Assembly: GCA_018824145.1 (NCBI GenBank)
Contig: JAHJHC010000032.1
Span: 5,330 to 69,329 of the forward strand
Reading direction: 5' to 3'
Length of the DNA stretch: 64,000 bases
Source of the DNA: Candidatus Omnitrophota bacterium
GTDB lineage: Bacteria > Omnitrophota > Gorgyraeia > Gorgyraeales > Gorgyraeaceae
The position numbers were made by a program, and so were the translations under genes. Under the pieces are notes generated by a model. The model was given only the letters and a program-made list of their open reading frames with translations, did not search any database and was not told where the DNA came from. The number at the start of each line of letters is the position of its first letter. Positions within the stretch are counted from its first letter, which is position 1. This document shows, in pieces, positions 7,802-42,103 of this stretch.

Positions 7802-7834
7802 AAAAAAAACTTGCCTTTTTTAAAAAGGCAAGTT
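7802..7834 (-). terminator. Intrinsic (rho-independent) terminator downstream of the giant gene.
   Basis: The stem CTTGCC/GGCAAG (7810-7815 and 7827-7832) has an AT loop. On the minus strand it is followed by a U8 tract, the complement of A8 at 7802-7809. Confidence 0.6.
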
Positions 7835-7857
7835 TCTCTTTTGGAAATTTGGAAATT

Positions 7858-7930
7858 GGAAATTCGGGACACATCCCAATTTTCACGCGTAGCTACAAAG
7901 CTTGAAAATTGGGATGTGTCCCGAATTTCC
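7858..7930 (-). repeat. A 27-bp perfect inverted repeat with a 19-nt loop, forming a large stem-loop in the giant-gene 3' UTR and flanked by short tandem GGAAATT repeats.
   Basis: Positions 7858-7884 (ggaaattcgggacacatcccaattttc) are the exact reverse complement of 7904-7930. The loop contains the palindrome GTAGCTAC. GGAAATT occurs three times on the left flank and CGAATTTCC twice on the right. Confidence 0.8.
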
Positions 7931-7983
7931 CGAATTTCCCTTACGCGCATCCAGCATCAAACATTGAGATTCCATAAAATACC

Positions 7984-31900: not shown

Positions 31901-34900
31901 CCTATGACGTCAAATGGATTTGATTCTCCATAGACAATGCCAGTATAATCTACAGGAGAAGTCTGGGCATCCTCTATACGAATATTCGCGCTGTTTGTAA
32001 GGGTTGCAGGAAGCACTACAGTGGAGGTATATGATAAACTGGCTGGAGGAATACCTGTCTTATCTATATTAGATGCAAGGGTCTTTGGATATCCTGCGCC
32101 TGAATTACCATCTTCCAGAATTATATTAATGTTCGTGGTCGGAGCAGCTATTGCACTCCATTCAATAAGATTACTATTACTTTCAGCTATCCACGCCTGT
32201 GAAGGTGTAGTAACTGTTATTTTTGGCTTTAATGTAAAAAAGGTTGTTTCTACATCGATATCATTATTCTGGTTCGATATAACACGGATCTTACATTGCT
32301 CACTTCTCTGCTGTTGTTTTGTATCTGCAGCATGCCATAAATAAGTATTGGTGCCTGACTTAAGGCCTGCTGGATTATTATCATGTCCGTCATATGCATT
32401 ATCGATCGTAGTGTATCCTGTACCTTCAACATAAAGTTCGATCTTTACAGTTGACATAATACCAGTTGCTTCCCAAGTAACATTATGGTCTTCTCCAACA
32501 TACCATGTCCCAGGTGTAGTGATCGAGGTAAGGTCTCCTTTAATAATAAATGTATCACTTTCATCCTGCAGTTCATATGGAGCGCCCAGGCCATCATAAT
32601 TTATTGCAGTGGTACGGATCTTACACAAGTTATAAATCTTATCGGGGACTGTCCAGCTTAGAGTAACTCCAGTTTCACCGGATGCTCCTGGAGTCCGTGA
32701 ATCAGGAAGGCCTGATCCTCCTGCATTGTCCAGCCAGTCACTTCCGTCCCATAATTCAAATTTAAGATTCCCTGTATCTCCGTACTTCTTCCATTTTACT
32801 GTAACACTGTCTCCAACAGTCATCTCCTGATCCAACACAGGCTGCATCATCTCTAATTGGCCGACAACAATATTTGCCTCACCTACAGCAGTTTCTGCAT
32901 ACACATCCTGTCCATCAAGGGCATCTTCAACTCGGAAAAGCACCTTATTGTCCATAGCTGGATTTGTTATATCAGAATCTATAGCAGTATAATCTGTAGA
33001 AGTTACGCCTCCTGCTAAATCACTGCCGATCTGTGTCCACTGTGTATCACCGATATTCTTATAAAATGCCTTTAAATTAGTAAAACTACCGACATTCGAC
33101 CAATTAATAGTATGTACTCCTGATCCTATTGTTATGGTCTCATTCTTTGTACTGGGATCCCCAGGCGGCTGGTCAAATAAAATATTTCCTTTAAAGGCAT
33201 GTGTAGGAGAACCAGCCATTATAGGCCCGAATATATCAAATTCGTGGTTCATCTCTCCTACTCTGATCTTCACTTCAGGCGCAGTACTTTCAGGGATATT
33301 AACAGTATAAGGCGTCCCAGGGACATTTGTGCAATAATCAGGGGCAATTTCAGTGGCTCCGGAGAATGCTACCCATGAACCATCAGGATAACTTGCTCCT
33401 GAGTTTGTATTATACATAATCTTTACATTCCCTACGTCACCCTTTACATTCCACTCTATGTCTCCTGTACTCAAGACATTGTATCCCTGATTAGTTAGAG
33501 GGCTGTCAATAACGATTTTACCTCCTATACTAAAAGTCGGAGATATAGAAACAACATCCGTATCTTCATATTTCACCTGCTCATCATCTTCTTCCACTCT
33601 TACCAGCTTGATCTTCGCATTATTATGCGCAACAGTATTAGTCTCAGGGATCGTCCATAAAGAACCACTGGCTGTAGACGCCCATGTTGGCTGTTCATAC
33701 CAATTGGTTCCATCAGGTGTAGAATAGAGTCTCACCCAGCCAATTAAACCTGTTGTGGTCCAGGTAATGGCTTTACTTTGTTCTATAATCCACAGGTCGC
33801 CGATACCAGGCGGAGTCCCTATAAAAATCCTTGGTTTTATCTCAAAGTCATACAGAGATTCATCTGATACAGAGGTATCATTATGGTCTCTTACACGCAC
33901 TCCGGCCTTATCAGTTGTAATTGTCTGCCTGTCATTCTCAGCAGGTATACTCCATGAGTAAGGTGAAGATCCTCCTCCGATTTGCGATGCAATCGTAAAA
34001 TCTGTATAATCATTATTCCCGCTATCTGTATCTAAGAGTATATCTACTTCAGCTATACCACCTGTAACAGTCCATGTAATAGTCGGAGCGCCTGTAGCAG
34101 GCGGCTGTGAAAATCCGTCAACAAACCATAACTCTATATTCTGGTCATCCATGCCAGGTGAACCTAAATACACAGCACCTTTTACTACAAAATTACTCTG
34201 AGAGTTCGCAAAGACATAGGTACCGTCATTATTATCATAAATCTTTACTCTATATGTTATACCAGCTGTGGCAGGAACCTGCATTGAATGATGGCAAATA
34301 TTGCTTCCATCTTCATTTTTGTCATGAGCAACAGTAGCTACAGGTATATCATATAAAGTGCCTGAATCATCATCATAGTATATTTCGCATGTACCTAAGT
34401 CCCCCTTATATCTCCACTGCACATCTATATCCGCGCCACCCACATAATATACCTCGCCACCGTTAGGCGCTTCCATCCAATGGTTCTTTTCGCCTCCTGA
34501 TATTGCGTAAAGTTTACCTTTAATATGGAAGTCAATATCCGTAGCATGCTTTACACTGGTCTCGTCTGCGTCTTCTATCTTTATCTCATTACCGGAAGTA
34601 GTACACTTATTTGCAGGGACTGTCCAATCGTAATAGCTGTTACCACTTGCCGGTAAAGTAGTTATAGGCGTCCCAACATTTCCTAAACCATCTTCCCATG
34701 TTACACCATCCGGCGCATAATATAATTTTAAATCACCAAGGTCATACCCGCCCGTCTTACCCACGTTGTCATTAACTACCCACTCGATCCTGAAGGTCTC
34801 TTCAGCGATCAATGCATCAGCATTTATATTGCTTGCATCCGGGCTAGTTATCTCTAACTTGCCTAGTACAGTCAGTTCTGAAGATTCCTTATATACATCA

Positions 34901-37900
34901 GTCGCATGGGCAACGCTCTCAACCCTTATACGTATATCATTGTCAGGAGGAGTAACTTGCTTGGTAACAGGGCAATCTATCTTCGGCCATGAAAACGAAT
35001 CTACATTTGATATACCACTCGCTATAGTACCACCCCAACCCCCAGTTCCTCCCTCTGTATCATATTTTACATTCACAGTCTGTACACCGTTTGTTCCTGT
35101 GCCTCCGCCTTCTGTCTCCCATGTAATATTATAGTTAGTAGTTCCTACATAAACAGTTCCAGTAGATGGAGAAAGATTGACAAACCTTGCCTTGATAGTA
35201 AGTTTATCTGCAACAGATATAGATTCTATGCGATCATCGTCTTTTGCCCTGATTTTTATCCTTATCTGTGAATTCAAACCATTGTCTCCAACCTTAAAAA
35301 CAGTATCATCATCTGGTATAGTCCATGTATATGACTCATCAGTTGCAGTAACTACACCTGGAGTATCAACAATAGCATTAGTGTAGTTATCAGAACCATT
35401 ATTCTTTGAATAATAAATATAAATGTCTCCTATGCCTGAACCTTCTGCATCCCAGATAATAGCATTCTGGGCCCCGCATTCCCAATCAGGGCTCACAGCA
35501 GGAGAGCCGGCATTCTGCGGAGGTGTTGTAAGCTCCAGACTCCCAAGGATAGCAAAGTTATTTAGTGATGCGTCACTTACATCATCTTCATCTCCTACCT
35601 TAACAGAATACACCTTTATCTTACATTGCTGGCTTACAATGCCCGGAAGATTCTCAATGGTCCAAGTGTAATAAGACTCATCCTCATATGTAGTATCATA
35701 ATTATTTTCAGAAGGGATGGAGCCGCCTAGTAAGGCATCATAGTCAGTGCCGCCATTTGTCGAGTATGCTATCATTACATCTCCAAAATCAAAATCAACA
35801 GGCTTCCACCTTATATCCATTGTCTCGCCTATTGTCTTCACTATACCTGTAGCATCAGGATAGCTCAGCTTGATCTGGGGTTTTACAGCAAAATCAGCTG
35901 TCCCTGTATTTGATTCACCAGCAGTCCCTGTAACCAGATCTTCATCTCCCTGTAAGGCCACCATTATCATATCGTTTGCCCCTTCATGCACAGGAAGGAC
36001 TGTCCAGTTGAATGTTCCAGCTGTGATGTCAGTTGTATCAGGCGTGGTCAGTTCGTAAGTATAGTTGCTTCCGCTGTTCTTTGAGAGCATTATCTTGGCC
36101 CATCCGGTTATAGATCCGTTCACATCCCAGGTTATAGCAGTTGTCTCACTTGTGTCAGAGATCTTAACAAAATTTGTAGTCGGAGCTGTAACTACTATAG
36201 ATCCTTTTATCTTGAATGCAGGGCTTTCATGATATATATTCGTCAGACTGTAGTCCTGGACCTTTACATAGACTTCATTATCCAGGTCATTAGGGATAGT
36301 CCATGCATATTTTAAATCAGTTGAAGGCTTATCTACTCCAGGGGCTATTTCAGCGTAGCCACCAGCCCCTTTCTTATAAAACACCTTTACCTTATCATCA
36401 GTTGTGCTCCCCTTTAAAGTCCACTCTATATCCCTCTGGGTTCCATATCTCCACACATCATTAAGTTCCGGCTTTGTAATTGTAACTACCTGCTCTATTG
36501 TGAAGACAGCAGCTGATTCATCATCAATATCACTAGGATATGCAGCACTCTCTATTCTGATCATGGCTTGTGTAGATTCCGGAGCTGGAACAGGATCCCA
36601 TGTCCAAAAACACTGGTTCGAATATGTAGTATTATAATTATTCGCCACATCGATCCCGACTCCGCCGTTTAACTTTTCCCATGTACCTCCAGTATTCCTT
36701 GAAATGGATATATATACCTTATTATTACCAACAGGCCCTACATCACCTTCGTATTCCCATATAATGTCATGGGAAGTACCCACCTGCCATGAAGGCGCGC
36801 CACCATCATGCTGAATAAGGGTCACGGTAGCGTCTATGTCAAAAACAAGGTCAGATTCATCCTCTACTCCTGTAAGCTCAGCCTGTGAACTCTCTATCTT
36901 GACCATGGCTTCATCACTTATAGGCAACTCCGGAGTCCACTGGTAATAGGATTGGTTCGTATAGGTAGTATTGTAATTTAGATTCGCTGCTACTTCATCT
37001 ATATACTCCCATGCAACACCGCTATTCCTTGATACGTAGAGTTTCACATTGGTCGTGGACAGGTTGCTTGTATTTGACCATACAATATGTCCGTTATCAC
37101 CTGTGGTACTGCCTGTAATCCATCTCTCATCTCCACCCATAGGCTCTACAAGTGTTATTGAACCTTGTTCTATAGTGATGCTGGCGCTTTCGCCGTATAC
37201 AGTCGAATCCGCTATGTCAGACTGGACTACCTTTATCTTGGCGTAATCATCCTGAGCAGGCTGGACAAGACTAAAAGGTATATCCCAATCATATGAACTC
37301 CCAGTGCCGGATGCCCCTGCAGGCTCATCCAATTTAATAGGCGTGTTATATGATAAGCCGTCATTATTTGAATAAAATATATTTACCGTGCCATCAGTAA
37401 TGCCTGTACCGAAATGTCCATGTTTCATCCAGGAAATAGTCTTATCCTGCTCACCAAGATACCAGGTTGTAGGAGAAGTAGGAGTTACACTGGTTATACG
37501 GCCTCTTAATGTAAACGGCTGAGATATAGTTTGTACAGTTGTATTCGGGGAATCAGGGTCATAATTTGAAGTTATCTTAATGACACAATTCGTGCCGATT
37601 AAGTTCTCTCCGTCTATTGCAGCAGGTATTGTCCAGGGAAAAGTGCCGCTTCCGCCGTCGCCTGCTCCGGTACCGACACTGGTAGTAGTGCTTAACGGCG
37701 TACTAAGGTAAGTCTGTCCTCCGTCAATAGAAAGCTTTATTGTAACAGTTGTCGTACTTAAAGTATCCAGGTGCCCCAAATAGTCCCACGTAATATCCTG
37801 CTGTTCCCCTATCCTCCAGGTATTTGGCGGCTGGTCAATAGTCAAAACTCCTTTTATAATAAAATCCTCATTGGATATATCAATGTTTCTTGCTGACATA

Positions 37901-39993
37901 TCCGTATCTGTAATCTTGACCCTAAGCTGTTCGCCTATAAGATTCGTTCCACTGATATCTGCAGGTATATCCCATCCATAGAACCCTGTAGGGCAATGTG
38001 TATCTTCTTCAACTGGCGATGCTGGCGTCTCGTAAATAGCTGTTCCTATATATCCAGAGCCGCCGTTTACAGAAAGCTCTATCTTTACTTTATGCTGATT
38101 ACTGTATCCTGTGCCTCCGCTATTGGTAGAATCAGCATAGACCCATACTATATCCTTAAGCTGTCCTACGGACCAGACCTCTTTCTCTTCTGTATAATCA
38201 GGCGGCAGTCCGCCATTGGGTACCTTTACTGTAAGAGGCGCAAGCTCCACTACATAATTACTTATGTTTATAGCCACGTAAGTATCGACTCGGTTTAAGG
38301 TAAGGGTAGTAGCAGGCGGCCCTCCTGATAGATCAGCCCTTATCCATTCAGAACCAGTAGTAGCACTCCTCGTAGTAGAGCCTCCTGAAACGCTGTAGGT
38401 TATAAATGACCTTGTATCATCTATTGTATAATCCAGGACCTGATTCTGTGCATTGGCAGCTGCAGCAATGCTCTGAGAATACTGCTGGATCAGAGTAGAT
38501 TCATCAGTAAATTCTACGACAGACCATGCGATTTCCATATTTCCTGCTGTGCCTACGCGGTCAAATGTAAGCGTAGTAGGATTAGTTATTACGCCCCGCG
38601 TAAAAGTATCATCCCAGTATGTAGCAGTAATTGCATTAAGATAACTAAACACAAGAAAGCTTTTATCTACATCCACTTCCTCTGGTATCTCTGCTGTAGT
38701 AGATGAGACTGCGACAGCCATCGTAGCATAGGAGGAATGATGCTGGACTTTGGCATCTGTCTCAAATGAGACAACCTGCCACATGATATTACAGGCCCGG
38801 GCGCCTATGCCTGTACCACGCTTGAAATACAGCGTCTTTGAAACCCCTCCTCCTGCAACCGGGGGTATATATTCATACACTTCAAAGTAAATATCCCTAT
38901 CGCTCTCAGCAGTGCCGTTCCAATAACATATGCCGTCAGGATACGGATTTCCAGTCATCCTCCTGATATTTACGTCAGAGGCAGTATTCCCTCCAGGCGT
39001 ATCGCGCAGGTCAATATAATAAGTCTGATTATCATTAAGCGTTACCGGCGTAGAGAATTCTATATCAAACCATCCCCAGCTACCAGGAAGGGTAGTCGCA
39101 TCTATATTGGTGACACTGGAATCAGTAACTATCGTACCGTTCTCTGTCTCTCTGATGGAAAAATCCACATACTGCGGAGCAGGGCTGATAGCATTTCTAT
39201 CTATGTAAAGACTGACCTTATCCAGCTGATAAGTAGCACCAGTACTGTCATACTTAAACTGTTGTGCAAGTCTATAGCTGGAAAGCGTGGTGCCCACATA
39301 ACTGACTGCACCACTATTACAGTATGAAATAGGCCCGGGTGCTGCCTCGCCCTCTATGAATTCACCCAGCGGGAATACATCAGGTACATTAGTTACAATA
39401 TAAGCATTGGGGCTTAATAGTAAAAAGCTCTTATTCATATCTACTTGGAACGGCAGAATAGTGTATCTATCCTGTTTATCTTCGGCAAGGATTGTTACGC
39501 CTCTCTGGACAAAGACCCCGTCTGTAAACTCCACAATGCGCCAGTTTATATTCCTGGTAGAATACTCTTCCTGAGCGCCCAGCTCTAACCGGTAGGCATC
39601 ATAAAAGTCCACATATATAAGATTACCTGCCTGATAACCTGCTGTTGAATCATTACTATCAAGTGTTGCAAAGGCAACGCATTTAGTTACATCACTAACA
39701 GGTGTATGGGCATCTGGAGAGCCTGTATAGCCGTCTGTGCCGTCATCTATCCAGACAACACGCACAAAGCTCGTACCCGCACTTCCTGTAGGAGCAAGTG
39801 TAGCTGTGCCTTTATAGACCTTCTTCACCTGCACTGCTTCTGCCTCTGGCACTAAATAAACCATAGAGGAAAGTAGATACACCCCTCCCGTAAGCAATAT
39901 TGCCCCAATGAAGACGCCTAGATTTTTCAGTAATCTTTTCTGCAGATTCAGATTTTTTTCTTTCATCTTCAGAAAATTATTATACGTCTTCAT
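7984..39993 (-). CDS. Giant surface or adhesin-like protein of 10,669 aa. It has an N-terminal signal-anchor, a unique roughly 600-aa N-terminal region, more than 100 tandem Ig-like beta-sandwich repeats of about 90-100 aa, and a non-Ig C-terminal region.
   Basis: It is a single uninterrupted ORF of 32,010 bp. The N-terminus KNLGVFIGAILLTGGVYLLSSMVYLV is hydrophobic. A recurring domain signature (...W.VG....I.W...G....V.I.YS.DGG.....I.......Y.WT.P......IKI.D..) runs throughout. A GGAGG SD lies upstream of the ATG. Confidence 0.9.
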   Translation of the reverse strand: MKTYNNFLKMKEKNLNLQKRLLKNLGVFIGAILLTGGVYLLSSMVYLVPEAEAVQVKKVYKGTATLAPTGSAGTSFVRVVWIDDGTDGYTGSPDAHTPVSDVTKCVAFATLDSNDSTAGYQAGNLIYVDFYDAYRLELGAQEEYSTRNINWRIVEFTDGVFVQRGVTILAEDKQDRYTILPFQVDMNKSFLLLSPNAYIVTNVPDVFPLGEFIEGEAAPGPISYCNSGAVSYVGTTLSSYRLAQQFKYDSTGATYQLDKVSLYIDRNAISPAPQYVDFSIRETENGTIVTDSSVTNIDATTLPGSWGWFDIEFSTPVTLNDNQTYYIDLRDTPGGNTASDVNIRRMTGNPYPDGICYWNGTAESDRDIYFEVYEYIPPVAGGGVSKTLYFKRGTGIGARACNIMWQVVSFETDAKVQHHSSYATMAVAVSSTTAEIPEEVDVDKSFLVFSYLNAITATYWDDTFTRGVITNPTTLTFDRVGTAGNMEIAWSVVEFTDESTLIQQYSQSIAAAANAQNQVLDYTIDDTRSFITYSVSGGSTTRSATTGSEWIRADLSGGPPATTLTLNRVDTYVAINISNYVVELAPLTVKVPNGGLPPDYTEEKEVWSVGQLKDIVWVYADSTNSGGTGYSNQHKVKIELSVNGGSGYIGTAIYETPASPVEEDTHCPTGFYGWDIPADISGTNLIGEQLRVKITDTDMSARNIDISNEDFIIKGVLTIDQPPNTWRIGEQQDITWDYLGHLDTLSTTTVTIKLSIDGGQTYLSTPLSTTTSVGTGAGDGGSGTFPWTIPAAIDGENLIGTNCVIKITSNYDPDSPNTTVQTISQPFTLRGRITSVTPTSPTTWYLGEQDKTISWMKHGHFGTGITDGTVNIFYSNNDGLSYNTPIKLDEPAGASGTGSSYDWDIPFSLVQPAQDDYAKIKVVQSDIADSTVYGESASITIEQGSITLVEPMGGDERWITGSTTGDNGHIVWSNTSNLSTTNVKLYVSRNSGVAWEYIDEVAANLNYNTTYTNQSYYQWTPELPISDEAMVKIESSQAELTGVEDESDLVFDIDATVTLIQHDGGAPSWQVGTSHDIIWEYEGDVGPVGNNKVYISISRNTGGTWEKLNGGVGIDVANNYNTTYSNQCFWTWDPVPAPESTQAMIRIESAAYPSDIDDESAAVFTIEQVVTITKPELNDVWRYGTQRDIEWTLKGSTTDDKVKVFYKKGAGGYAEIAPGVDKPSTDLKYAWTIPNDLDNEVYVKVQDYSLTNIYHESPAFKIKGSIVVTAPTTNFVKISDTSETTAITWDVNGSITGWAKIMLSKNSGSNYTYELTTPDTTDITAGTFNWTVLPVHEGANDMIMVALQGDEDLVTGTAGESNTGTADFAVKPQIKLSYPDATGIVKTIGETMDIRWKPVDFDFGDVMIAYSTNGGTDYDALLGGSIPSENNYDTTYEDESYYTWTIENLPGIVSQQCKIKVYSVKVGDEDDVSDASLNNFAILGSLELTTPPQNAGSPAVSPDWECGAQNAIIWDAEGSGIGDIYIYYSKNNGSDNYTNAIVDTPGVVTATDESYTWTIPDDDTVFKVGDNGLNSQIRIKIRAKDDDRIESISVADKLTIKARFVNLSPSTGTVYVGTTNYNITWETEGGGTGTNGVQTVNVKYDTEGGTGGWGGTIASGISNVDSFSWPKIDCPVTKQVTPPDNDIRIRVESVAHATDVYKESSELTVLGKLEITSPDASNINADALIAEETFRIEWVVNDNVGKTGGYDLGDLKLYYAPDGVTWEDGLGNVGTPITTLPASGNSYYDWTVPANKCTTSGNEIKIEDADETSVKHATDIDFHIKGKLYAISGGEKNHWMEAPNGGEVYYVGGADIDVQWRYKGDLGTCEIYYDDDSGTLYDIPVATVAHDKNEDGSNICHHSMQVPATAGITYRVKIYDNNDGTYVFANSQSNFVVKGAVYLGSPGMDDQNIELWFVDGFSQPPATGAPTITWTVTGGIAEVDILLDTDSGNNDYTDFTIASQIGGGSSPYSWSIPAENDRQTITTDKAGVRVRDHNDTSVSDESLYDFEIKPRIFIGTPPGIGDLWIIEQSKAITWTTTGLIGWVRLYSTPDGTNWYEQPTWASTASGSLWTIPETNTVAHNNAKIKLVRVEEDDEQVKYEDTDVVSISPTFSIGGKIVIDSPLTNQGYNVLSTGDIEWNVKGDVGNVKIMYNTNSGASYPDGSWVAFSGATEIAPDYCTNVPGTPYTVNIPESTAPEVKIRVGEMNHEFDIFGPIMAGSPTHAFKGNILFDQPPGDPSTKNETITIGSGVHTINWSNVGSFTNLKAFYKNIGDTQWTQIGSDLAGGVTSTDYTAIDSDITNPAMDNKVLFRVEDALDGQDVYAETAVGEANIVVGQLEMMQPVLDQEMTVGDSVTVKWKKYGDTGNLKFELWDGSDWLDNAGGSGLPDSRTPGASGETGVTLSWTVPDKIYNLCKIRTTAINYDGLGAPYELQDESDTFIIKGDLTSITTPGTWYVGEDHNVTWEATGIMSTVKIELYVEGTGYTTIDNAYDGHDNNPAGLKSGTNTYLWHAADTKQQQRSEQCKIRVISNQNNDIDVETTFFTLKPKITVTTPSQAWIAESNSNLIEWSAIAAPTTNINIILEDGNSGAGYPKTLASNIDKTGIPPASLSYTSTVVLPATLTNSANIRIEDAQTSPVDYTGIVYGESNPFDVIGEIVISKPDDTCLDWTVGDTTRLIEWNVKGTIGDAKIYADYNGDGTMDETLTTIACSSGYNSWTWEDPGDPTDEGIGDYVGNNVKIKIDDVDAYTVTTDTSDPFPILGGFEFTKPAAVGEVHHIDDDTDPTGYLIKWKTSGTNITAVKLEYFHNVNGWTPIEPSLANNSWGDTENSYTWDADSTGPLPVNLAATNVKFRITAVTPNQPDTELESATIVLCGDIEVTAPTQGVTWVADGTTANTVSWNVFGPVGNVKVFYTRDVSESYVELTEQSGEAGDAAANKGAYQWTIPTDPAQGDFITRVDAAHGSLIKVSDAVAPFDTYATDESLDFMVKGQLRLIAPTVGALSAGLNCASSNTITWERDGRIYAVNVKYSTNNGVDNYSNVIAQDRTFATINSTQQSTASQWQVPETPVTDEYILLIEDANYEKSGTDGTFVPSDAFRIKGALTLTAPTATATWRITEEKTISWEVDHGQLDYVKIIASPSGNFSGDEYDVVTGLNPFNVEAFNTGLLPSKVGSGNYPWTIPISTPLVDTIKFKVVHDNASFTDIKSNASAAMDMRANILVQTPTVDYSPFVDWKVGDTGKIVKFSAYGSALGTVYVFLYDGDDGVEHQLDSGGVATAGNGNPQDFTLPSSVPDVKSNACTVRVRDTVIRVDADVEGESGAFSAYPVLSNVAITPTDPPDVANVWITGATNQEVTWTDTSAQVDTVDIYYSSTGSGGFNFGTDTPIMDDWSTAQGSCATITVPSTRTLQGRIAVRDADSNFDDDVNAMMQTDFRVAGKIYIDEPDDTHNWQVGATDKLIKWHYDGDVSAVDIYIDYDGYGTGTSEVLLKANVDVDDGVAGYNPASAGGAWDPAGVPNEVGNNVQIRIQDANDNYDDATTTTSEAFKITASFTFAYPVGSEEFHVTSLTPSFVIKWNTIGDSVSAVKLEYWNKDSGTSGEWLLIKNGVANNKHGSGVANENTYTWDTVGAHDNLLPLNLAAEDIKFRITSSTPLQPSTAKVSNEFVICGNIAVTAPTQGLTLVADGTTANTVSWNVYGPVTNVKIAYSRDSKSNYVELVSSMSAEAGDAAANKGAYQWTIPTDPSLGDYITRVDASESSYIKVEDASTFGQYVSHESLDFIVKGQLRIIAPSVATLADGFVGRETTPVTWERDGRINAVNVKYATDGVTFSNSLVSDRIFATTAATQQSLASDWIIPETPLTPDYKILIEDTNYEKSGTSGTYVLSNPFTVKGALTLTAPSSTTTWNITDTNKTISWNVAHGEISKVKIIASPSGNFTGDEYVVDTNLNPFSVSAFSAAATPVGSGSYQWTIPVTAVLSDTTKFKVRDMNETDYADVISAASVAMYIRGKITVKTPTVDYLPSDDWNVGDTDKQVKFTTYGDTMSTVYVYLYDGVAEHQIDGGSGIATNGNGSEETFGGSGEFTVPDVKSHNCTIRVRNAESSPTAEGESGGTFSTYPVISNVAITPTDPPNTAGVWIAEAADQTVTWTETSAELTTVDIYYSSTGTGGFNFETDTPIVDNWSTAQGSCATITVPTERTLQGRIAVRDADSNFDDYINAMIPANFKVCGEIFIDEPDDTHNWQVGATDKLIKWHYDGDISAVDIYIDYDGYGTGDPEVLLKANVDATQGSAGYNPASAGGAWDPNGVPNEIGNNVQIRLQDADSNYESVTTTTSEAFKITASFTFAYPVGGETFHVASTTPSIQIRWNTIGDNVSAVKLEYWNKDSGASGEWLLIKSGIANNKHGSGVANENTYTWDRVGAHDNLLPLNLAAEDIKFRITSSTPDQPSTAKLSNEFVICGNIAITAPTQGLIWTADGATANTISWDVFGPVTNVKILYSRDSGVGYVELVSTMAAEDDDGDGDADEDDTIPNKGSYDWTIPTNPATGDYITRVDAGDDSYITVEDTSTFGTYVTDESLDFIVKGQLRIITPSAATFANGFTGRASTQITWERDGRINAVNVKYATDGVTFSNVITADRTFATTAATQQSLASAWIVPETPLSISYNILVEDTNYEKSGADGTFVESGNFRVKGQLTLTAPSSTDTWNITDTNKTISWDVNHGEISKVEIIASPSGNFTGDEYVVDTNLNPFNVSAFNGVATPVGSGSYSWTVPVTAVLSDTTKFKVRDDNETDFPTVITAASPAILIRGKIAVKTPTVDYLPSTDWHPGDSDKQVKFTTYGDTMGTVYIYLYDGAAEHDLAVGGISTNGDGNEETYNVPQVPDVKSINCTIRVRNAESSPTVSGESQGTFSVYPTITGVTITPSTGDEGSNPPIWRAGLGSQTVTWTENDIATPGLISEVQILYTATGGTPDTALNTGGAVTTHEICNTITAPAALSFDSAIVRVRDADTDFQDKIYADSSAFRMLGRIQYGASPSLDADWFIGDDSRQVIWSAFGTEITQLDVYADYDDGAGFNYITTIAANSSPWTFEDPEGSGTVGDNVTESAQIRLQDNDTDRGPLTQYNSVTFHIAGKFETIAVTAVDPEDTVVVSNRAAIVTWAKTGTLISDVLMQYTTNGTNWYNIVNNLEADTTTLVSNNESYSWTSPATVMSQLCKIKITDPDNSAAQGISAANFTIAPKCKVLQPDSNDSWEANDTETIEWQKWGTFPNVNIYYRPDDQTAWDLLNDAETVPSHGGDGLNGTWGWYIDEEVVLSPTAEIKVVDKDRETYTLAILSDQFTTRGSVEMLWPDDGTEGYNVYEAGIAKNIKFKRYGNIEGVKLYLWDGDSWDLMTDLGTNGVIDFVGAETEHITSWSPPEFIGTSYKIKCQDKNNADIDSESPPFKIKGKVKITDPDLQQPTWYITDQDKRIRWDVQHGNIAFVKIEISPSGAFGGDEYLIIGQTQADNEIAFDKDTSPVAKGFYDWDIQRDTPLSTIARIRVKDYNETDYDDVASTSGADVTIRGKISVQTPGVDWNVKDTGRLITWNAYGAISTVWIDFYDGNQWLLSINGAGGTACGDGDNKTWSVANWDVHGKIPDMKSNACQIRIKNATSNPTISETSGTFYVYPTITNVDIVPSVGDEAKDHTIWRAKLANQTVTWTENDISDDTLVDTVDIVYSKAGTFADAVTIKEDVLTHESCATITAPTNLSFQSAKIRVQDNDTGFENKVYGDSTEVFSVLGRVVYGASPSLGANWGIGAVDKLINWTAYGDQLTQVDIYIDYGSSYIYQKTEDTVPESPDSWTYDDIDTGVDGVGDYAAENVTVRIEDVDTDRKAYTQYLSPAFNIIGSFEFAYPLGGETFHIDDDTSPSPLQIQWKTTGSDVSKVKLEYYHNVNGWTLIDGNVDNNYGDGVQVNTYDWGPASSTPLPVNYAATDIKFRITSVVPNHPATELESEEFVICGTLDVTAPEQGEIWVADGATANTISWDVYGPVTNAKISYSRDSGVGYTVIVPTQLAEAGDAQANKGAYQWTIPVNPASGDFITRVDAADVSYIKVEDASATYGTYVNDESLDFIVKGQLTIIAPTAGTLASGFVGRDSTQITWQRDGRINAVNVKYATDGVTFSNVIAADRTFATTAATQQSLASAWIVPETPLTPNYKILIEDTNYEKSGTDGTYILSNTFTVKGALSITAPSTTTTWRITEQKTISWDVDHGQINKVKIIASPSGNFTGDEYTVDTNLDPFNVSAFSAAATPVGSGSYPWTIPVTADLTDTTKFKVRDANETDFADVISTASVVMYIRGKITVLTPSVDYAPFGVDWKVGEADKQVQFRSYGDTMSTVYIYLYDGTTEYDLAVGGTSTVGNGNIETYNVPSVPDVKSHNCTIRIRDAAVSPNAEGESGTFSAYPTISSVAITPTNPPNIAGVWVSDSENQTVTWTETSSKLTTVDIYYSATGTGGFNFETDTPIVDNWSTAQGSCNTITVATNKTTQGRIAVRDADSNFDDYINAMTATNFRVAGKIYIDEPDSAHNWPVGATDKLIKWHYDGNLTAVDIYIDYDGYGTGDPEVLLKANVDVDDGVAGYNPASAGGVWDPDGVPNEVGNNVQVRIQDGDSAYEDATTTTSDAFKITSSFTFAYPTGGEPFHVDSLTPSFVIKWNTIGDSVSAVKLEYWNKDSGASGEWLLIKDGVANNKHGSGVANENTYTWDTTGAHDNPIPLNLAAEDIKFRITASTPLQPSTAKESNEFVICGNVEVTAPSQGDIWTADGATANTVSWDVYGPVTNVKISYSRDTGGGWTELVASMAAEDDDGDGDADGDDTIPNQGSYDWTIPTNPATGDYITRVDAGDDSLIKIEDTSTFGTYVVDESLDFIVKGQLTIITPTAGTLASGFVGRDSTQITWQRDGRINAVSVKYATDGVTFSNVIVADRTFSTTAALQQSLASAWIIPETPLIPNYKILIEDTNYEKSGTDGTFVLSDAFKVRGALTLTAPATTTTWRITEQKAISWDVNHGEINKVKIIASPSGNFTGDEYTVDTNLDPFNVSAFNGVATPVGSGTYQWTIPVTADLTDTTKFKVRDANETDYSSVISAASVAMYIRGKITVLTPTVDYAPFDIDWNVGDTNRQVKWRAYGDTMSTVYIYLYDGTTEHNLAVGGTATVGDGNIETYNVPQIPDVKSNNCTIRIRDAQTSPKAEGESAGTFSAYPTISGVTITPSAGDEGSNPPIWRAGLENQTVTWTEDIISDDNLISTVQIYYSSTGTGGLPGTLLLDNVNTEETCSAITAPLQLSYNQAVIRVRDKDTGFEDKVYGDSSPFRVLGRIVYGLSPAQDANWFVGETNKTVNWTAYGNQLTSVDILIDYDDGEGYQYLKTESTVPGSPDTWTFDDPDAGIDGVGPHITLTTQIMIQDVDTDRQTYTKYESPTFHIAGNFDINDALLPTTLSAGDPYTIKWENYDLQGQIPIAKLEFFDGTTWHDIDYKTNPTGHTGLVTNSESCSWSVPTDVKSVACQFKISDPDNAAAVDLSATFEIRAVITVTSPDSNDKWVIGTSGNLIEWNVTGLIGTVGSPNVFEIVYSNDDGVTYPPYGGYVINSSYTATPPVSYPWTIPTDEDILTKDQAMIKVADASLAAACGESDSFMMKSGITVTEPETTDVLTVGTAFTIEWTTLGTADMGDVIIQFSKTGSAPWTNIATVDFEYGSSSYNLWAPAIDSITDDTKAAIVRITDVDNTEVTDDSEAFEIEGDIVWESPIESGLMWSVNTSYDIEWTPTGTFGPIKIEYSTNAFADELETNYFTSVANSAHGVRRVYPFTVPNDIDDQVKIRISHEYDSDVKAVVPYNIKFVGSLDVTAPDSQTPKPIWLKGQSKNITWTAIGDVTNVDIQYKTSAGGNYIDIILDHDGGGAYGDGSNTYQWTVEDENSENCYIKVSDTLHHTGAATDVYSVSTYPFSIRPVITVSQPVEDSNLVVLSDGHTISWSLNGSEQVSYVKLYYSVDGGSFEDLDVSGNVDATSDYTWDNIPDAISDDVVVRVVDNVNSSVYGDSPSFDIIGSITVVKPDSNSNWEVGTTDKNITWSYTGSIGLVNIYYDYGQGYDLVDASNMPVAASGQSYTWSSIPDHVSESVKIKITDEDTETAVDKVEDESVPFKIRGGFVLDAIPAYVISASGRTITWTPNGADILIAKLEFSSNNGGAWRNIDYVSAGNPGTGFVSNSGAYSWTVPSDVASTTCLVKISDPDNADAKHTSNSFEVRAKITLDSPTTSDAWVVNDNHDIEWTVTGVVNNVNIEYSVAGGDFGWVLGWAAGEDPQVDPVGQASNISASDGSFTWKIPDQMSDEINVRIADTTKPNDVKDESGNFTITGKIVLGAPVGGETWYVLDQKTISWTKTGNIPLVDVLWSEPTINGGAYQYITDGEDLTENSTTWSVPSVISDSVKVRIVNSDATKPTIAAVSDFFYVRGKLLITSPQLDQVWDSGAQKNITWTTTGPIPEVTLDYDYDGVGTGVDWITIDTDITASDQSYPWTVPPTISSNVVVRVTDELYNEVTNTSPVFKIANIVVTRPQAGDPWICQEQEDINFTVSGAITNVKIEFSSNGLSGPWTEIEPSLAVSQDANTYTWNSVTTVASTHTIIRIKDTNQKSFVTGFSPEFIVRGGFTFLHPISTDRWLANSAKTIEWTTKGTILNVYIRYRLDDQDNFDFVNDGSTISNNNQYPWTVPNAISYEAQIKISDAQDSSATTESAPFTVHGQLTVTQPNDSSSKLKAGQFDQDSKIIWTMIGPISRVDIYLSTTGDVEENYEYMTYVEGATEYSWSVPTDKGRSTNCFIRLKDPSDPQELVKDESDTAFWIIDNITVLTPDGTVPWIAGNTHAVTWTSEDIATSVDIKYKKDAPYDTWPGTVISGITNDATNSYDWPIPNSIDLTHTYRIRVSDANATYSAYCFDTSVDFTIQGTITVTEPNGGTAPDFLDMEKWGCDLTHYVKWTSQGNITNVDIAYYLGSTPPSNPNDWVDIITNYSNSGAKEYPWDIPITLTAENVLIRVKDHNTAFPDVKDVTDNPFKIMARVVVEEPETGYVWEAGTQGTIKWTRYGPSSFDKVKIEYAYNNPDFTDPGDPQDPTDIKVITSSEQFVGSVGNFGWNIPPEAVGFESMRIRISKHDDPDVYDISDAFTIRVNFTSISPNGGQKWILGHTETISWTKTGITYSDTARTQEAVKLTVYLQANPTIKYVIGVQPSSGTAGIYDWTIPTTLDYRLITDNMGLIMRVEDPNYDDPTDTDAYKDSASPFKIMPDIIVTSPVSDEQWFVNDTNRYITWTITDTTVPTLGNVTMYYSLTGGSSWTAISGSSTPATDEEWLWVPKVPDIISSQLKIKVESNDDSDCYGVAPHTVNAQTGFPNRNSFTTAPYAKISAKFTIDPNITGQDLVVGDSYQITWTNTGTVTDVKITYSLNGDTGPFDPIDEDNDPQTADTGIVANGASGGSFDWTVPDDIARDTVKLRVESSLDSDAVDTSGLFRIMGEITINAPVGGPSWEIGQDKDIKWNWVGTIPEVEITYSTNGLTGPFNPVDEDNDPGTANTGLVTNGAGAGGPGAEHTFTWTVPDEASANVIIRVADARDGTSPVGDQTDIIGESQSFEIIGYIITHAPVADEKWAVASSHDITWEWGGTMPQVKITISQNGVGGPFVPIDEDNDPGTANTGIVTNGVYDPQNPGATHSFTWIVEDYISPTCVIKVADARTLLESIVNDDSGEFKIQGDFTLTSPAIALKEGGDPAEVLDYECRWVTNEVREVTWTTFGTIPKVDIYYSKDNFADIDPADGVPDNQILIKNDLGQQALDWDNTGTFDWKIANDRSDTVKIRIYDHNDPDVFIEGPYVDPGFPAGVSTTMKIDYYTITWDIRDLITNQHINGLTVSEVSTSGWPGWDATGVSSPKNHDVTADNWTATFTHKDYGPIEVTYFTGVDEEGKVWGDRKIFRTMETLVVHIWRAYSEFSYDVETDRLDITSWLERDGSLVPGALVVDVKIYDGFEQIKRKTILVQEEDTPQAGDPEKHYFYEDIPSTVDIWLGTSWDPDLEQEVERFQFENIADCATYKTGEIQTPIDFAGFFPQTWTPTSHTSGGTAYDTLQAGKVYTVKTYIVLGTGGNFTTPVSFTVTIPTAMASMEDSLENMDDKIDYVLDKPMSVISGEIQASMDQQIILLDQKTDEVVDIVSAQTETIETKMNEQSALIDSKTDEMIAMVDMTLTSFETRTQSAIEDLQEGADMAVEAGETLMETALKYSWGASVSPNPVLTNETVTINCQGQPGLAPVIDIYDVNSNLVYSSIMKESSDGVYVYEFEADDSFEAGKAYSFIIQESETGGLVTGSGMVGKYEWSVAVFPDPALTGDTITLQCIGLPNLLPQVYIYAWDGDAIEEGLLMTQDTPGMYIAKVEADGNFPAGKAYTYMVTEQQTGTVLVGSGMVESMSITTVAGLAAAAPEASRAAKKALEAIKALEAVLISGDSINIALTLKNLKSSVDALPEIMSKEGPTAVITNAINEVSDRIKALAGEEGYDMGTILEEALTESPTVKEIRNKTDAINGTVDVVLQTFESKIGGIEDPIVLMQ
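17400..32200 (-). repeat. Nested tandem super-repeat inside the giant gene, with a period of about 2.33 kb (about 775 aa, 8 Ig-like domains) and five full copies.
   Basis: Conserved landmarks (KLEY[WFY]...GEWLLIK or HNVNGWT coding, read on the antisense strand) recur at about 31.4, 29.06, 26.69, 22.06 and 19.7 kb. Near-identical antisense pseudo-ORFs (..EKVTPSVAYFTLTAL..) sit at 18971, 21347, 25943 and 28373. VFSLATPEPCLLLA-type pseudo-ORFs sit at about 19.65, 26.6 and 28.9 kb. Confidence 0.85.
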
Positions 39994-40008: not shown

Positions 40009-40515
40009 TTAATCGCTTATTAAGACCTCGAGCTGATTCTCAGATTCTTCTTCGGAGTCAGGCTCAGGTCTTTTTATTCTTTTTGCAGCCCTCACAAAAC
40101 TAATACTTTTTGCGAGCCATTCTTCAGTAATCCTGTTTCCTCTGTTTGGCTTAGTTACCTCATGGTAAGTCACCTTCACAGCATCGCCGACTTTTATATC
40201 GTTTAAACCCTGTTTATGCACCACCTTTGTATCTTCATCAATAAGAAAAGAATAATCAGTATTTGTCTCGGCATCACCTACGGCAATAACCGTGGGATTA
40301 AATCTGGGTGTAAAATAAATAACCTCTCCTACCAACTCTTTTTCTTTAATCATCTCTTTCACAGGAGACTGTTCGCCTTCTCCTTGCTCTTCGTCGTCTT
40401 CCTGAGCAACTCCTGCCCCTATGCCTCCTAAGAGAAAAACCGCTATTAAAAATATGAGACATACAAAAATCTTTTTCATCCCGCTATCCTCCTTACTTTT
40501 AAAAATAATATTCAT
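40009..40515 (-). CDS. Small secreted protein of unknown function, located immediately upstream of and co-oriented with the giant gene.
   Basis: The 168-aa protein has a signal peptide (KKIFVCLIFLIAVFLLGGIGAGVA), an acidic linker, a beta-rich domain and an acidic C-terminus. There is a 15-nt gap to the giant-gene ATG. Confidence 0.6.
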   Translation of the reverse strand: MNIIFKSKEDSGMKKIFVCLIFLIAVFLLGGIGAGVAQEDDEEQGEGEQSPVKEMIKEKELVGEVIYFTPRFNPTVIAVGDAETNTDYSFLIDEDTKVVHKQGLNDIKVGDAVKVTYHEVTKPNRGNRITEEWLAKSISFVRAAKRIKRPEPDSEEESENQLEVLISD

Positions 40516-41780
40516 TTCTTCATCCTATCGCCTTTAGATACAAATGTAAAATCCCTGACTGCACCGTCAGCTGAACGTTTTGTCAGCACGCCTTTTAAAA
40601 CCTCACCATCCCATTTTCCGTGCCAGCTGGCTGATTCACCCAGCTCGTTTGTCTGCATCGTCTCCCACGTAATAGTATCGTCTTTAAGCTTACGTTTCGA
40701 ATAATTTGCATCACTAAAACCTTCCCTGCTTAAATTCAGTGAAGTCAAACGATTGTATTTAAAAATGATTGTATCTTGAGCATTAAAAGCTATGCCCGGA
40801 CCTCCGACTTGCCTCAAATCAATCCTCCAGGTATACCCTTCTATTTCCATCTTCGCCTTTTCAAGTTCTTTTAAGGCATCTTCAGTCAGCCTGATCTTCC
40901 ACACGTAGTCATCTATCTCTTTATTTGCCTCAATGGCTTTATCTCTCTCACTTCTAAGCACATCTAAAGTCTTGTTATAAAGTGCCATGGTTTTATTATA
41001 CTCACTCTTCATCACAGTATGCTGTCTGTAAAAATATAAAATGACAAAGACTAAAACTAAAAATGTTATTCCACTCGAGATCATGTAAATCAGAAATGAC
41101 TTCTTAGGGACAGGTGCCTTCTTTTGTTCCTGTGCTGCACTTTCTATTCTTTTTTTAATCTCTTCTGTAAATTCCCTCGGACCCAAAATTCTTCCTTTGT
41201 GTAATTTTTTTTTAAACTCATCTATCTCTATTTGGGTAACAAATTCTGTGTATCTCTCGAATGTCTTTTCCCTGCCTTTTAAGAGTGTGAATACTTCTTC
41301 AATCTCACTACCTAACTCAGGAAAATGCCTTTTTTCCGGGTTTAAAAATTGAGGATAACTGGAAAAAGGATACGTCTTGATGTAATTTGTAAAGTCTACT
41401 CTTTTGGGATTCAGATGGATATGTCTTAAGAGCGGTAAAAGAGAACTCTCTTTCTCTGCCAGCTTAGCCTTAAACCTTTCCTGGAAAAGGTGCCCTTTTT
41501 TATTATACTTTCCGTTAAATAATTTTGTATATATGGAGTTTATATCATGCATAATACTTGAAATACCAATCTGGTTCTGTAGCTCAATAAGCATATGAAG
41601 ATGGCTAGGTAGTAAAATATAGCCGAATAGCTTAAAACTATATTGCTCTTTATATCTATTTATTAATGACACATATTCTCTATAGTCATCAGGCTGTATA
41701 AATATATTTTGATTGTGACCACCTCTTGAAGTCACGTAGTACAAAACATTTTCAACATATACTCTCGGAAGCCTTGCCAT
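40512..41780 (-). CDS. Membrane-anchored fusion protein with an N-terminal IS200/COG1943 (RAYT-like) HUH domain, a TM helix, a coiled coil and a C-terminal WETMQ domain.
   Basis: The N-terminus MARLPR...YYVTSRGG...LLPSHLHMLIE...GHLFQERF...LRHIHLNP matches the COG1943 Y1-transposase fold with HUH = HLH. A TM helix ISSGITFLVLVFVILYFY follows. The C-terminus ...ITWETMQTNELGESASWHGKWDGEVLKGVLTKRSADGAVRDFTFVS is shared with two other ORFs. The gene overlaps the next gene by 4 nt (ATGA). Confidence 0.65.
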   Translation of the reverse strand: MARLPRVYVENVLYYVTSRGGHNQNIFIQPDDYREYVSLINRYKEQYSFKLFGYILLPSHLHMLIELQNQIGISSIMHDINSIYTKLFNGKYNKKGHLFQERFKAKLAEKESSLLPLLRHIHLNPKRVDFTNYIKTYPFSSYPQFLNPEKRHFPELGSEIEEVFTLLKGREKTFERYTEFVTQIEIDEFKKKLHKGRILGPREFTEEIKKRIESAAQEQKKAPVPKKSFLIYMISSGITFLVLVFVILYFYRQHTVMKSEYNKTMALYNKTLDVLRSERDKAIEANKEIDDYVWKIRLTEDALKELEKAKMEIEGYTWRIDLRQVGGPGIAFNAQDTIIFKYNRLTSLNLSREGFSDANYSKRKLKDDTITWETMQTNELGESASWHGKWDGEVLKGVLTKRSADGAVRDFTFVSKGDRMKK

Positions 41781-41797
41781 CTTACCTTTTCTCCTTC

Positions 41798-41850
41798 AAA
41801 ATGCCTGGCACCTATCTAAAAGTGCCTGGCACTTTCTATCTAAAAACAAA
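41798..41850 (-). promoter_or_regulatory. Candidate operator or promoter region of the HUH-fusion, secreted-protein and giant-gene operon. It is a tandem 21-bp direct repeat, and each copy carries the palindrome TGCCTGGCA.
   Basis: tgcctggcacctatctaaaa (41802-) and tgcctggcactttctatctaaaaa (41823-) are centred about 25 and 45 bp upstream of the ATG at 41780. An AAGGAG SD precedes the ATG. Confidence 0.4.
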
Positions 41851-41873
41851 AAATCCAGGCGCATTGCCTGGAT
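41842..41873 (-). terminator. Intrinsic terminator separating the TMTC cluster and mini-gene from the giant-gene operon.
   Basis: The stem ATCCAGGC/GCCTGGAT (41853-41860 and 41866-41873) has the loop GCATT. On the minus strand it is followed by UUUUUGUUUUU. Confidence 0.6.
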
Positions 41874-41880
41874 TTCTCCT

Positions 41881-41979
41881 TTAAGTTTCGGCAATCTGCC
41901 TATCCGCCTGAAGCGGACGCACGATTTTGCGTCTCCAGATTACTCTGGATTTGCCTTTTTCGACCTCAAATCTCTTCAA
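41881..41979 (-). CDS. Possible 32-aa basic small protein ((M)KRFEVEKGKSRVIWRRKIVRPLQADRQIAET). It starts at TTG and carries its own promoter and terminator.
   Basis: A perfect AGGAGG SD sits at 41989-41984 with a 4-nt spacer to the TTG at 41979. A TAA stop at 41883-41881 is followed immediately by the terminator. The ORF track omits it because it is under 60 aa and starts at a non-ATG codon. Confidence 0.25.
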   Translation of the reverse strand: MKRFEVEKGKSRVIWRRKIVRPLQADRQIAET

Positions 41980-41994
41980 TTGTCCTCCTATTAA

Positions 41995-42023
41995 AGTATA
42001 CTCTATAATACATAAAAAATCAA
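41995..42023 (-). promoter_or_regulatory. Near-consensus sigma70-type promoter (TTGATT-N17-TATACT) driving the mini-gene.
   Basis: On the minus strand the -35 element ttgatt (complement of 42018-42023), a 17-nt spacer, and the -10 element tatact (complement of 41995-42000) are followed about 7 nt later by the SD. Confidence 0.45.
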
Positions 42024-42103
42024 GGGCCTCCCCAAAATTAGTACCGTTTGCTATTTAAATTCTTCGCCAACCTGCCGGGCAAACAGTACAAAAATCCTGC
42101 CTA

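Follow-up and report, generated by a model that had tools for sequence, protein, structure and literature searches.

The stretch of DNA analysed here (the window) comprises 64,000 nt of contig JAHJHC010000032.1 from a Candidatus Omnitrophota bacterium. It carries a putative operon in which a gene for a protein with a transposase-type HUH domain (the HUH gene) is followed by a small open reading frame (ORF) and a giant ORF. In front of this operon lies a doublet of short palindromes, which is most plausibly a recognition site for a protein and whose copies resemble repetitive extragenic palindromic (REP) sequences, the partners of REP-associated tyrosine transposases (RAYTs). As the original prediction had placed it, the doublet sits between an intrinsic terminator and the Shine-Dalgarno (SD) sequence and ATG of the HUH gene. 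All genes here are on the minus strand, and the features of the locus are listed below.

41995..42023, minus strand: sigma70-like promoter, TTGATT-17 nt-TATACT, read from the sequence; orthologs have the TATACT -10 and a -35 of TTGA type in the matching position
41886..41964, minus strand: aptamer of the cyclic di-GMP-I (c-di-GMP-I) class, best Rfam model RF03167 c-di-GMP-I-GGC
41848..41878, minus strand: intrinsic terminator, read from the sequence as the riboswitch expression platform, with a 13-bp stem, a 5-nt loop and a T-run; an equivalent is present in orthologs
41819..41835, minus strand: REP-like copy 1, terminator-proximal, AAAGTGCCAGGCACTTT, the exact family 17-mer, centre 41827 (sequence and repeat search)
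41798..41814, minus strand: REP-like copy 2, SD-proximal and degenerate, TAGGTGCCAGGCATTTT, centre 41806, 1 nt from its end to the SD (sequence)
41798..41835, minus strand: predicted inter-copy hairpin of 15 bp, closed by a 6-nt loop and interrupted at its centre by an A.A mismatch (RNAfold)
41802-41821, plus strand: unit 1 of the repeat, TGCCTGGCAC-CTATCTAAAA (sequence)
41823-41845, plus strand: unit 2 of the repeat, TGCCTGGCAC-TTT-CTATCTAAAA (sequence)
41790..41797, minus strand: SD region GAAGGAGA (GAAGGAG) of the HUH gene, whose ATG is at 41780 (sequence)
40512..41780, minus strand: HUH gene, encoding a 422-aa membrane-anchored RAYT-derived protein (Pfam Y1_Tnp, AlphaFold2, Foldseek)
40009..40515, minus strand: small ORF that follows the HUH gene and precedes the giant gene; the open frame has 168 aa, the called gene 156 aa (ORF list)
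7984..39993, minus strand: giant ORF of 10,669 aa, last gene of the putative operon (ORF list)

The palindrome TGCCTGGCA occurs twice at a spacing of 21 bp, spanning 41802-41831 as read from the window sequence. The repeat search recovered the palindrome-bearing 14-mer at 21 bp and CTATCTAAAA at 24 bp, the larger spacing arising from three extra nucleotides, TTT, in the copy on 41823-41845, so that the unit is no exact 21-bp tandem repeat. Thus the original prediction was right about two palindromic copies and needs correction on the tandem 21-bp direct repeat; moreover, the palindrome centres (41806 and 41827) are 21 bp or about two helical turns apart, and not the 'one-plus' turns that had been stated. 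In the 64 kb, TGCCTGGCA was found 3 times against 0.44 expected, a count of at least 3 was reached in 3 of 100 shuffles, and the doublet itself supplies two of the three occurrences. From the window count alone the enrichment is only weakly significant, and the element was judged real because of its conservation in orthologous loci, which is strong evidence, and not because of this count.

Each copy is palindromic about a central W and the pair folds as a 15-bp hairpin, which is the form of a short extragenic hairpin-forming palindrome of the REP type. The energy of the inter-copy hairpin calculated by RNAfold was -20.8 kcal/mol as RNA and -9.7 kcal/mol as DNA, and a spurious mir-1303 match in a permissive E-value Rfam search of the window region mirrors the same pairing. 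Two side observations concern the copies. A possible third degenerate copy, TGCCCGGCA, stands some 50 nt ahead of the -35 (42073-42081); chance alone would give roughly one such 9-mer per window, hence this copy is not claimed. In addition, a GUG in copy 1 opens a 6-codon frame (GUG CCA GGC ACU UUU AGA UAG, M-P-G-T-F-R-stop) at 41826-41806 on the minus strand. The same GTG gave spurious 'MPGTF...' ORF starts in several metagenome loci, with no sign of translation.

The leader upstream of the doublet was then found to carry more regulation than had been supposed. The aptamer matched RF03167 over its full length with a score of 60.5 bits (gathering threshold 59, E = 8e-12), and the terminator begins 8 nt downstream of it. 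A score over the Rfam gathering threshold together with an expression platform marks this element as a c-di-GMP-I riboswitch, with ligand binding predicted only. The assignment to a variant is uncertain, since orthologs match RF01051, RF03167 or RF03168. Minimum free energy folding and inspection, aimed at the ON/OFF logic of the riboswitch, gave no conserved antiterminator. The original prediction had called the repeat the only obvious regulatory input of the operon, which was mistaken because promoter, aptamer and terminator lie directly upstream, 10-190 nt from the doublet. As judged from these sequence features, the primary switch of the giant-gene operon is the sigma70-like promoter with the c-di-GMP-I riboswitch and its terminator, not the repeat. 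In the Omnitrophota giant-gene papers that were text-searched, the terms riboswitch and c-di-GMP do not occur.

Promoters within the repeats themselves were considered and rejected. For a sigma-54 promoter (TGGCAC-N5-TTGC, with GG and GC 12 nt apart), TGGCAC is present but there is no TTGC at the required spacing, and GC, where present, is 10-11 nt away (by eye). For a sigma70 promoter there are weak TAGATA-like hexamers only, which are not conserved in orthologs. As a separate observation on c-di-GMP, a 149-aa ORF with an MshEN domain, which we take to be a c-di-GMP-binding domain, lies downstream of the giant gene at 1449-1898 of the window (minus strand), with genes of an F-type ATP synthase beside it, and may be a further c-di-GMP link.

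From an alignment of 52 homologs of the HUH protein, 80 loci were fetched from species-representative genomes (L-numbers denote fetched loci), and the core counts cover the 29 related Omnitrophota loci with upstream sequence available. The core AAAGTGCCWGGCAC was present in all 29, with protein identity down to about 30%, and the sequence conservation of the element reaches far beyond its surroundings. The distance from the end of the T-run to the centre of the first copy was 19.2 ± 1.1 nt (n = 26, range 17-22), and in the window copy 1 is centred about 20 nt past the T-run. The distance from motif to start codon ranged from 24 to 287 nt. The position of the motif in the operon loci is therefore locked to the terminator, not to the promoter or the SD. 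Of the first 20 loci, 18 had a c-di-GMP-I clan aptamer by Rfam, which in 15 cases lay directly upstream of the HUH gene. In L006, L009 and L018 the riboswitch cassette lies downstream of the HUH gene and before the next gene, and the motif moves with the cassette. Pairing of the motif with the terminator arms was excluded, since the terminator stems vary (CCGGAC in L015 and L017, CTCAGG in L021, others in L032 and L033) and the motif does not, so that there is no covariation between motif and terminator.

The copies also differ among the orthologs. Second copies were more degenerate and variably spaced. In about ten loci the promoter is preceded by yet another copy, which stands a few nt from the -35 wherever a -35 is identifiable. 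The 5' half of the motif on the coding strand is conserved better than the 3' half, and its centre tolerates A or T alone, on either strand. One clade has non-palindromic direct repeats AAAGTGCCAGAC(T/A)T, and another has GTGCCACGCAC or ATGCCACGCAC, the same in both copies of a locus. In the loci of a subfamily with proteins of about 320 aa, the core is (A/G)TGCCACGCAC at both the promoter-upstream and the post-terminator site. On these sequences, the core variant co-varies with the protein subfamily.

The start-codon region of some loci of the ~320-aa subfamily was a further place where the motif was seen. A variant, ATGCCACGCA(C/T), occurs at the RAYT-like start-codon region in L215 (10010-10020), L032 (2338-2348) and L213 (about 9960-9975), where it encodes Met-Pro-Arg. 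It is a third copy besides the promoter-upstream and post-terminator ones, and in L215 and L032 it overlaps the start-codon region. Furthermore, L030, a record titled Promethearchaeota archaeon MAG (metagenome-assembled genome), has the terminator, the motif and the start of the HUH gene (MGRLPR) in the form typical of Omnitrophota, and its contig is probably mis-binned.

The hairpin potential of these leaders raises the question of an RNA element, in which the copies would form a stable hairpin in the 5' untranslated region that tunes translation, mRNA stability or weak back-up termination, with the HUH protein uninvolved. The 15-bp hairpin predicted for the window would suit such a role, as would the single-copy orthologs L008, L012, L014 and L030, in which covarying flanks lengthen the motif to a 13-17-bp hairpin that ends just before the SD; the better conservation of the 5' half on the coding strand points the same way. 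Yet the distance to the start codon varies over more than two hundred nucleotides at a fixed distance to the terminator, the promoter-upstream copies lie outside this transcript, and the hairpin is much reduced in the variants of L026 and L029. Moreover, the stem bases are invariant and do not covary as those of riboswitch helices do, and no Rfam family matches the motif. We consider an element acting through RNA structure alone unlikely. A known RNA family was rejected separately: at the gathering threshold Rfam returned no match over the motif, and the permissive E-value search of the window region gave chance matches only.

The leader position, ahead of a very long operon, also brings to mind an ops-like loading site. 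RfaH with its ops element, and LoaP, are the known systems behind this idea. Here the coding-strand sequence AAAGTGCCAGGCAC would recruit a NusG paralog of the RfaH/LoaP type and make transcription of the 32-kb gene processive, which would agree with the asymmetric coding-strand conservation and the potential for a small hairpin. However, most members of the motif family elsewhere follow the 3' ends of ordinary genes or separate convergent ones (see below), the promoter-upstream copies would make no sense, and no NusG paralog was seen in the window, where none was looked for. We hold this explanation to be very improbable.

An exact 17-mer scan of metagenomes gave at least 120 contigs with the motif; all figures in this and the next paragraph refer to the matches listed. 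The contigs ranged from 30 to 72% GC. Their taxonomy rests on three proteins, whose named relatives were from Omnitrophota (L129), Anaerolineales (L160) and Acidimicrobiales (L097, about 50% identity). The core is the tip of hairpins of 13-25 bp whose stems covary. In 51 of 137 instances the perfect palindrome continued for 5 or more bp beyond the core, and in L093, L104, L116 and L149 the outer stems differ at orthologous sites with pairing preserved. Many copies lay within 25 nt of stop codons, some of them between convergent genes. Many contigs were multi-copy, with a copy every 1-4 kb (4-8 copies per 8-15 kb), and in L148 and L135 near-identical 40-nt elements occupied successive intergenic gaps. 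Doublets were common. Their centres were complementary in 28 of 35 non-redundant cases (p = 5e-4), which makes them inverted pairs, and compensatory changes between the partners were seen in L136 and L142, as well as in the related locus L020. Because of these complementary centres and compensatory changes, the copies of a doublet are taken to form one long hairpin. The spacing of doublets was 18 to 58 bp, and helical phasing is therefore not conserved. This is the behaviour of REPs and REPINs (REP doublets forming hairpins) as described previously (PMC6006769, PMC3337134).

Several other explanations for the dispersed motif were tried and rejected. A riboswitch-specific accessory element was not supported, an aptamer being nearby in 1 of 84 metagenome instances, where the same regular expression finds the aptamer in most known loci. 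A genome-wide module of terminator plus motif was seen in about 4 of 137 instances, two of which were HUH loci. Against a sequencing-adapter or fold-back artefact, the arms extend for 5-17 bp only and then diverge into normal flanking genes. The uptake signal sequence of Haemophilus is AAAGTGCGGT, which the motif resembles; as a DNA uptake sequence, its density in the window is far too low. A literature search for the sequence returned eukaryotic primer and promoter coincidences only, and a plasmid database search with a 39-nt high-GC version of the element gave no meaningful matches. As a side observation, the high-GC contigs L090, L111 (two sites), L142, L178 and L184 carry a composite repeat, at several sites per contig, in which the motif occurs twice at a distance of 87 nt, and between these copies lie gccggttcgaattttcgc... 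and a pair of inverted sequences, ctgtggaaaac-N-gttttccacag, resembling DnaA boxes.

The dispersal bears directly on the proposal, made in the original prediction, that the doublet is the operator of a dimeric transcription factor with its palindromes in phase. Part of the proposal was borne out: the motif is palindromic and conserved, and about ten loci have an operator-like layout, with a copy ahead of the promoter that lies near the -35 where this is identifiable. As a classical operator, the palindromes would bind a dimeric factor of the helix-turn-helix (HTH) type, which would act as a roadblock past the promoter or by looping to the promoter-upstream site. The palindromic core with its A/T-only centre on either strand fits strand-symmetric recognition of duplex DNA; furthermore, it is the sequence and not structure alone that is conserved, and both copies of a locus share one core variant. 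The rest of the proposal was not supported. The same core is elsewhere a dispersed multi-copy repeat after stop codons and between convergent genes, at the tips of covarying hairpins and in inverted doublets, which is unlike an ordinary operator; in the operon loci it is locked to the terminator, some clades have direct repeats that are not palindromic, and the unphased spacing of the other doublets removes the argument from helical phase. In addition, no HTH-type regulator is encoded within the 64-kb window. The chance that the doublet is such an operator appears to us small.

The protein encoded next to the doublet is a candidate partner of REP-like sequences. It matched Pfam Y1_Tnp (PF01797) with 41 bits against a cut-off of 23 (E = 2.4e-10), and its closest relatives carry Candidatus Omnitrophota source names. 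In the AlphaFold2 model (mean pLDDT 86), the Y1-HUH domain (about residues 1-145) is followed by a transmembrane helix (about 226-250), a long helix and an eight-stranded beta-barrel (316-421). The best match of the N-terminal domain in the PDB by Foldseek was 4ER8, the complex of the E. coli RAYT with a REP hairpin (E = 1.7e-7, TM-score 0.70), and the IS200 and IS608 transposases ranked lower. The HUH motif is kept as SHLHMLI, with H60 and H62 at least 90% conserved in the 52 homologs. The catalytic tyrosine is absent: the motif reads RHIHLNP and His120 aligns with Tyr115 of 4ER8. His at this position is the consensus across the 422-aa subfamily, and more distant relatives keep YIHLNP. A lysine-rich segment precedes the transmembrane helix, for which reason the RAYT-like domain is predicted to be cytoplasmic and tethered to the membrane; in the model, the beta-barrel would be periplasmic. 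The 2018 survey of TnpA-Y1 proteins contains no mention of membrane-anchored RAYT relatives.

The ~320-aa subfamily has the transmembrane helix and keeps the tyrosine. In other Omnitrophota contigs its genes lie downstream of secretin/TPR (tetratricopeptide repeat) clusters and directly precede giant genes, called with products of 3,293-4,995 aa, of which three extend past the edge of the fetched locus. These genes have the same cassette of motif, promoter, riboswitch, terminator and motif with their own core variant. A membrane-anchored RAYT-like gene immediately upstream of giant genes was found in the window and in L213, L215, L216, L021 and L006.

RAYT genes are typically flanked by their REPs, an arrangement called a REPtron (PMC6006769), and two contigs show this arrangement with the present motif. 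L087 has a compact 146-aa Y1_Tnp gene (67.5 bits; HUH and Y---NP intact) beside a higBA-like pair, and near-identical doublets stand on both flanks of this RAYT and higBA-like unit. L112 has a RAYT-like gene with 40-nt hairpin copies on both flanks and a third copy 3 kb off. In the window, the copies are at the 5' flank of the HUH gene only. A homolog of the window protein adjoins the motif in 5 of 120 motif-selected contigs (among the matches listed). The pair in L087, at about 700-1290, reads by eye as a higB/higA-like toxin-antitoxin pair between the RAYT gene and the downstream doublet, inside the REP-flanked unit.

Such arrangements would also be expected if the copies were selfish passengers, that is, REP-type repeats landed or retained by a present or former transposase gene with no role in the expression of the operon, since RAYT genes are typically REP-flanked and L087 and L112 are REPtron-like. 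However, a non-functional 14-mer would not stay invariant at ±1 nt from the terminator across orthologs of 30-55% identity, and the invariance holds even though the protein of the subfamily has lost the catalytic tyrosine. We regard a purely passive origin as quite improbable. A function at this locus is argued from exactly these points, namely the invariant motif and its ±1-nt spacing to the terminator across deep divergence, even without the catalytic tyrosine.

Taken together, with moderate confidence we read the doublet as a REP/REPIN-like element with the core AAAGTGCCWGGCAC(TTT), from an element family that accompanies Y1-HUH proteins of the RAYT (TnpA-REP-like) kind, kept as a recognition site for a domesticated, membrane-tethered RAYT domain and possibly serving as a second checkpoint behind the riboswitch. 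The adjacent RAYT-derived domain would be the most economical candidate binder, because its fold is kin to that of a REP-hairpin binder, the core co-varies with the protein subfamily, and there is no other regulator nearby. The membrane anchoring and the catalytic death in one subfamily point to domestication rather than mobility. In the proposed mechanism, the cytoplasmic RAYT-derived domain would recognise the REP copies, either folded into a hairpin or in duplex DNA, and the bound domain would be a second checkpoint for transcripts that pass the riboswitch.

Two routes may be considered. In the first, RNA polymerase would be stalled in the T-tract, giving roadblock-assisted termination. An RNA polymerase that meets a roadblock halts some 13-15 bp short of it. 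If the duplex were occupied by a protein from about 11 nt past the T-tract onwards, the active site of the polymerase would come to rest in the T-tract, favouring termination. We know of no described bacterial riboswitch example of roadblock-assisted termination. In the second, the 15-bp inter-copy hairpin, 1 nt from the SD, would be bound or formed and would alter translation or mRNA stability. By either route, a membrane-sensed signal would become coupled to the expression of the operon, and both are plausible in their geometry.

Several points weigh against the domesticated-RAYT reading. Some concern the protein: with its catalytic tyrosine missing, it cannot be an active RAYT, and distant homologs in other phyla (L034-L083) have no such motif nearby. 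Conversely, the motif occurs on contigs resembling Anaerolineales and Acidimicrobiales-like Actinomycetota, in which no homolog of the window protein was seen, and a different, more universal binder of the motif has to be allowed for. Others concern abundance. Within the 64 kb of the window there are two copies only, and sizeable intergenic regions number just three; a 15-mer scan allowing 3 mismatches found no extra intergenic copy in it. Related Omnitrophota loci, about 170 kb in all, likewise had no copies other than those in the regulatory cassettes. REP-like abundance was thus seen on other contigs with this core and not in the window.

The remaining points concern the form of the element. 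In the window, A is the central base of both copies, and the resulting A.A mismatch means that this doublet is not a perfect REPIN. The canonical 5' foot of REPs is GT[AG]G (PMC6006769). The motif has no such foot (neither GTAG nor GTGG), its 5' flank being AAAG, and the family is therefore atypical; atypical REPs without the GT[AG]G foot have been described as subclasses 2.6 and 3 (PMC6006769). Finally, a fixed spacing to a terminator is no known property of REPs and could reflect a function at the level of RNA or RNA polymerase that is independent of the HUH protein.

A bolder version of the domesticated-RAYT reading can be stated, tentatively and as the doubtful side of what we propose. A catalytically dead, membrane-tethered RAYT that is linked to a beta-barrel in the periplasm may have become a regulator similar to ToxR, which would read REP hairpins 19 nt past a riboswitch terminator (in many loci also upstream of the promoter, and in one subfamily also at the start codon) and would gate the transcription or translation of the giant genes of Omnitrophota. 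If true, no earlier case would exist of a REP/RAYT pair that has become a dedicated regulatory module in cis and trans, and the REP core would be conserved across phyla.

The analysis corrects the regulatory picture of the 10,669-aa gene, whose operon is predicted to be under a c-di-GMP riboswitch, and it makes a Y1-HUH 'transposase' gene a conserved partner directly upstream of Omnitrophota giant genes. Moreover, the palindrome family offers a concrete candidate ligand for the RAYT domain and an unusually widely conserved REP-like core, which bears on the persistence and co-option of REP/RAYT systems. The 19-nt coupling of an intrinsic terminator to a conserved downstream site is a specific architecture.

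Among the other genes and features of the window, the small ORF at 40009..40515 had no Pfam match, and an ORF of 154-159 aa stands at the equivalent position in L021 and L006. Upstream of the operon are TPR proteins, two B12-radical-SAM (S-adenosylmethionine) proteins, a GT9 glycosyltransferase, a cyclophilin/SurA-like protein and a secretin. Shortly past the end of the giant ORF, at 7855-7940 (minus strand), there is a long inverted repeat, GGGAAATTCGGGACACATCCCAATTTTC ... GAAAATTGGGATGTGTCCCGAATTTCC, whose sequence is unrelated to the doublet, and it is followed at 7805-7835 by a separate hairpin and T-run terminator, AAACTTGCCTTTTTAAAAAAAGGCAAGTTTTTTTT.

Compared with known systems, the element is nearest to REP/REPIN sequences and their RAYTs (E. 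coli REP with YafM, PDB 4ER8; Pseudomonas REPINs). The element family shares with them the short extragenic hairpin-forming palindromes, the intergenic dispersal mostly at gene 3' ends, and the inverted doublets that form one long hairpin. With REPtrons it shares the Y1-HUH gene flanked by copies, as in L087 and L112, and the neighbouring protein in the window has the RAYT fold. However, REPs and REPINs are usually lineage-specific, whereas this core spans contigs of 30-72% GC and apparently several phyla. In contrast to RAYTs, the window protein has no catalytic tyrosine, is membrane-anchored and is encoded by the conserved first gene of a giant-gene operon; and unlike in REPs, a copy here stands at a fixed distance past a riboswitch terminator.

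The left end of IS200 has a terminator hairpin and a second hairpin that occludes the ribosome-binding site before tnpA. The window likewise has a Y1-HUH gene after a terminator hairpin and a second hairpin by the ribosome-binding site, but transposon ends and a right-end hairpin are absent, a conserved operon contains the gene as a single copy, and the terminator belongs instead to a c-di-GMP riboswitch with its own promoter. As a functional analogy only, membrane-tethered one-component regulators of the ToxR and CadC type share with the layout predicted for the window protein the cytoplasmic nucleic-acid-binding domain, the single transmembrane helix, the periplasmic domain and the gene beside a putative target site, although the putative binding domain in the window has the Y1-HUH (RAYT) fold and not a winged helix. 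Finally, the leader is like c-di-GMP-I (GEMM-I) riboswitches with a terminator platform in that an aptamer and an intrinsic terminator stand ahead of a surface- or secretion-related operon; the architecture described for those riboswitches is without a palindrome 19 nt past the terminator, whereas the leader in the window has one.

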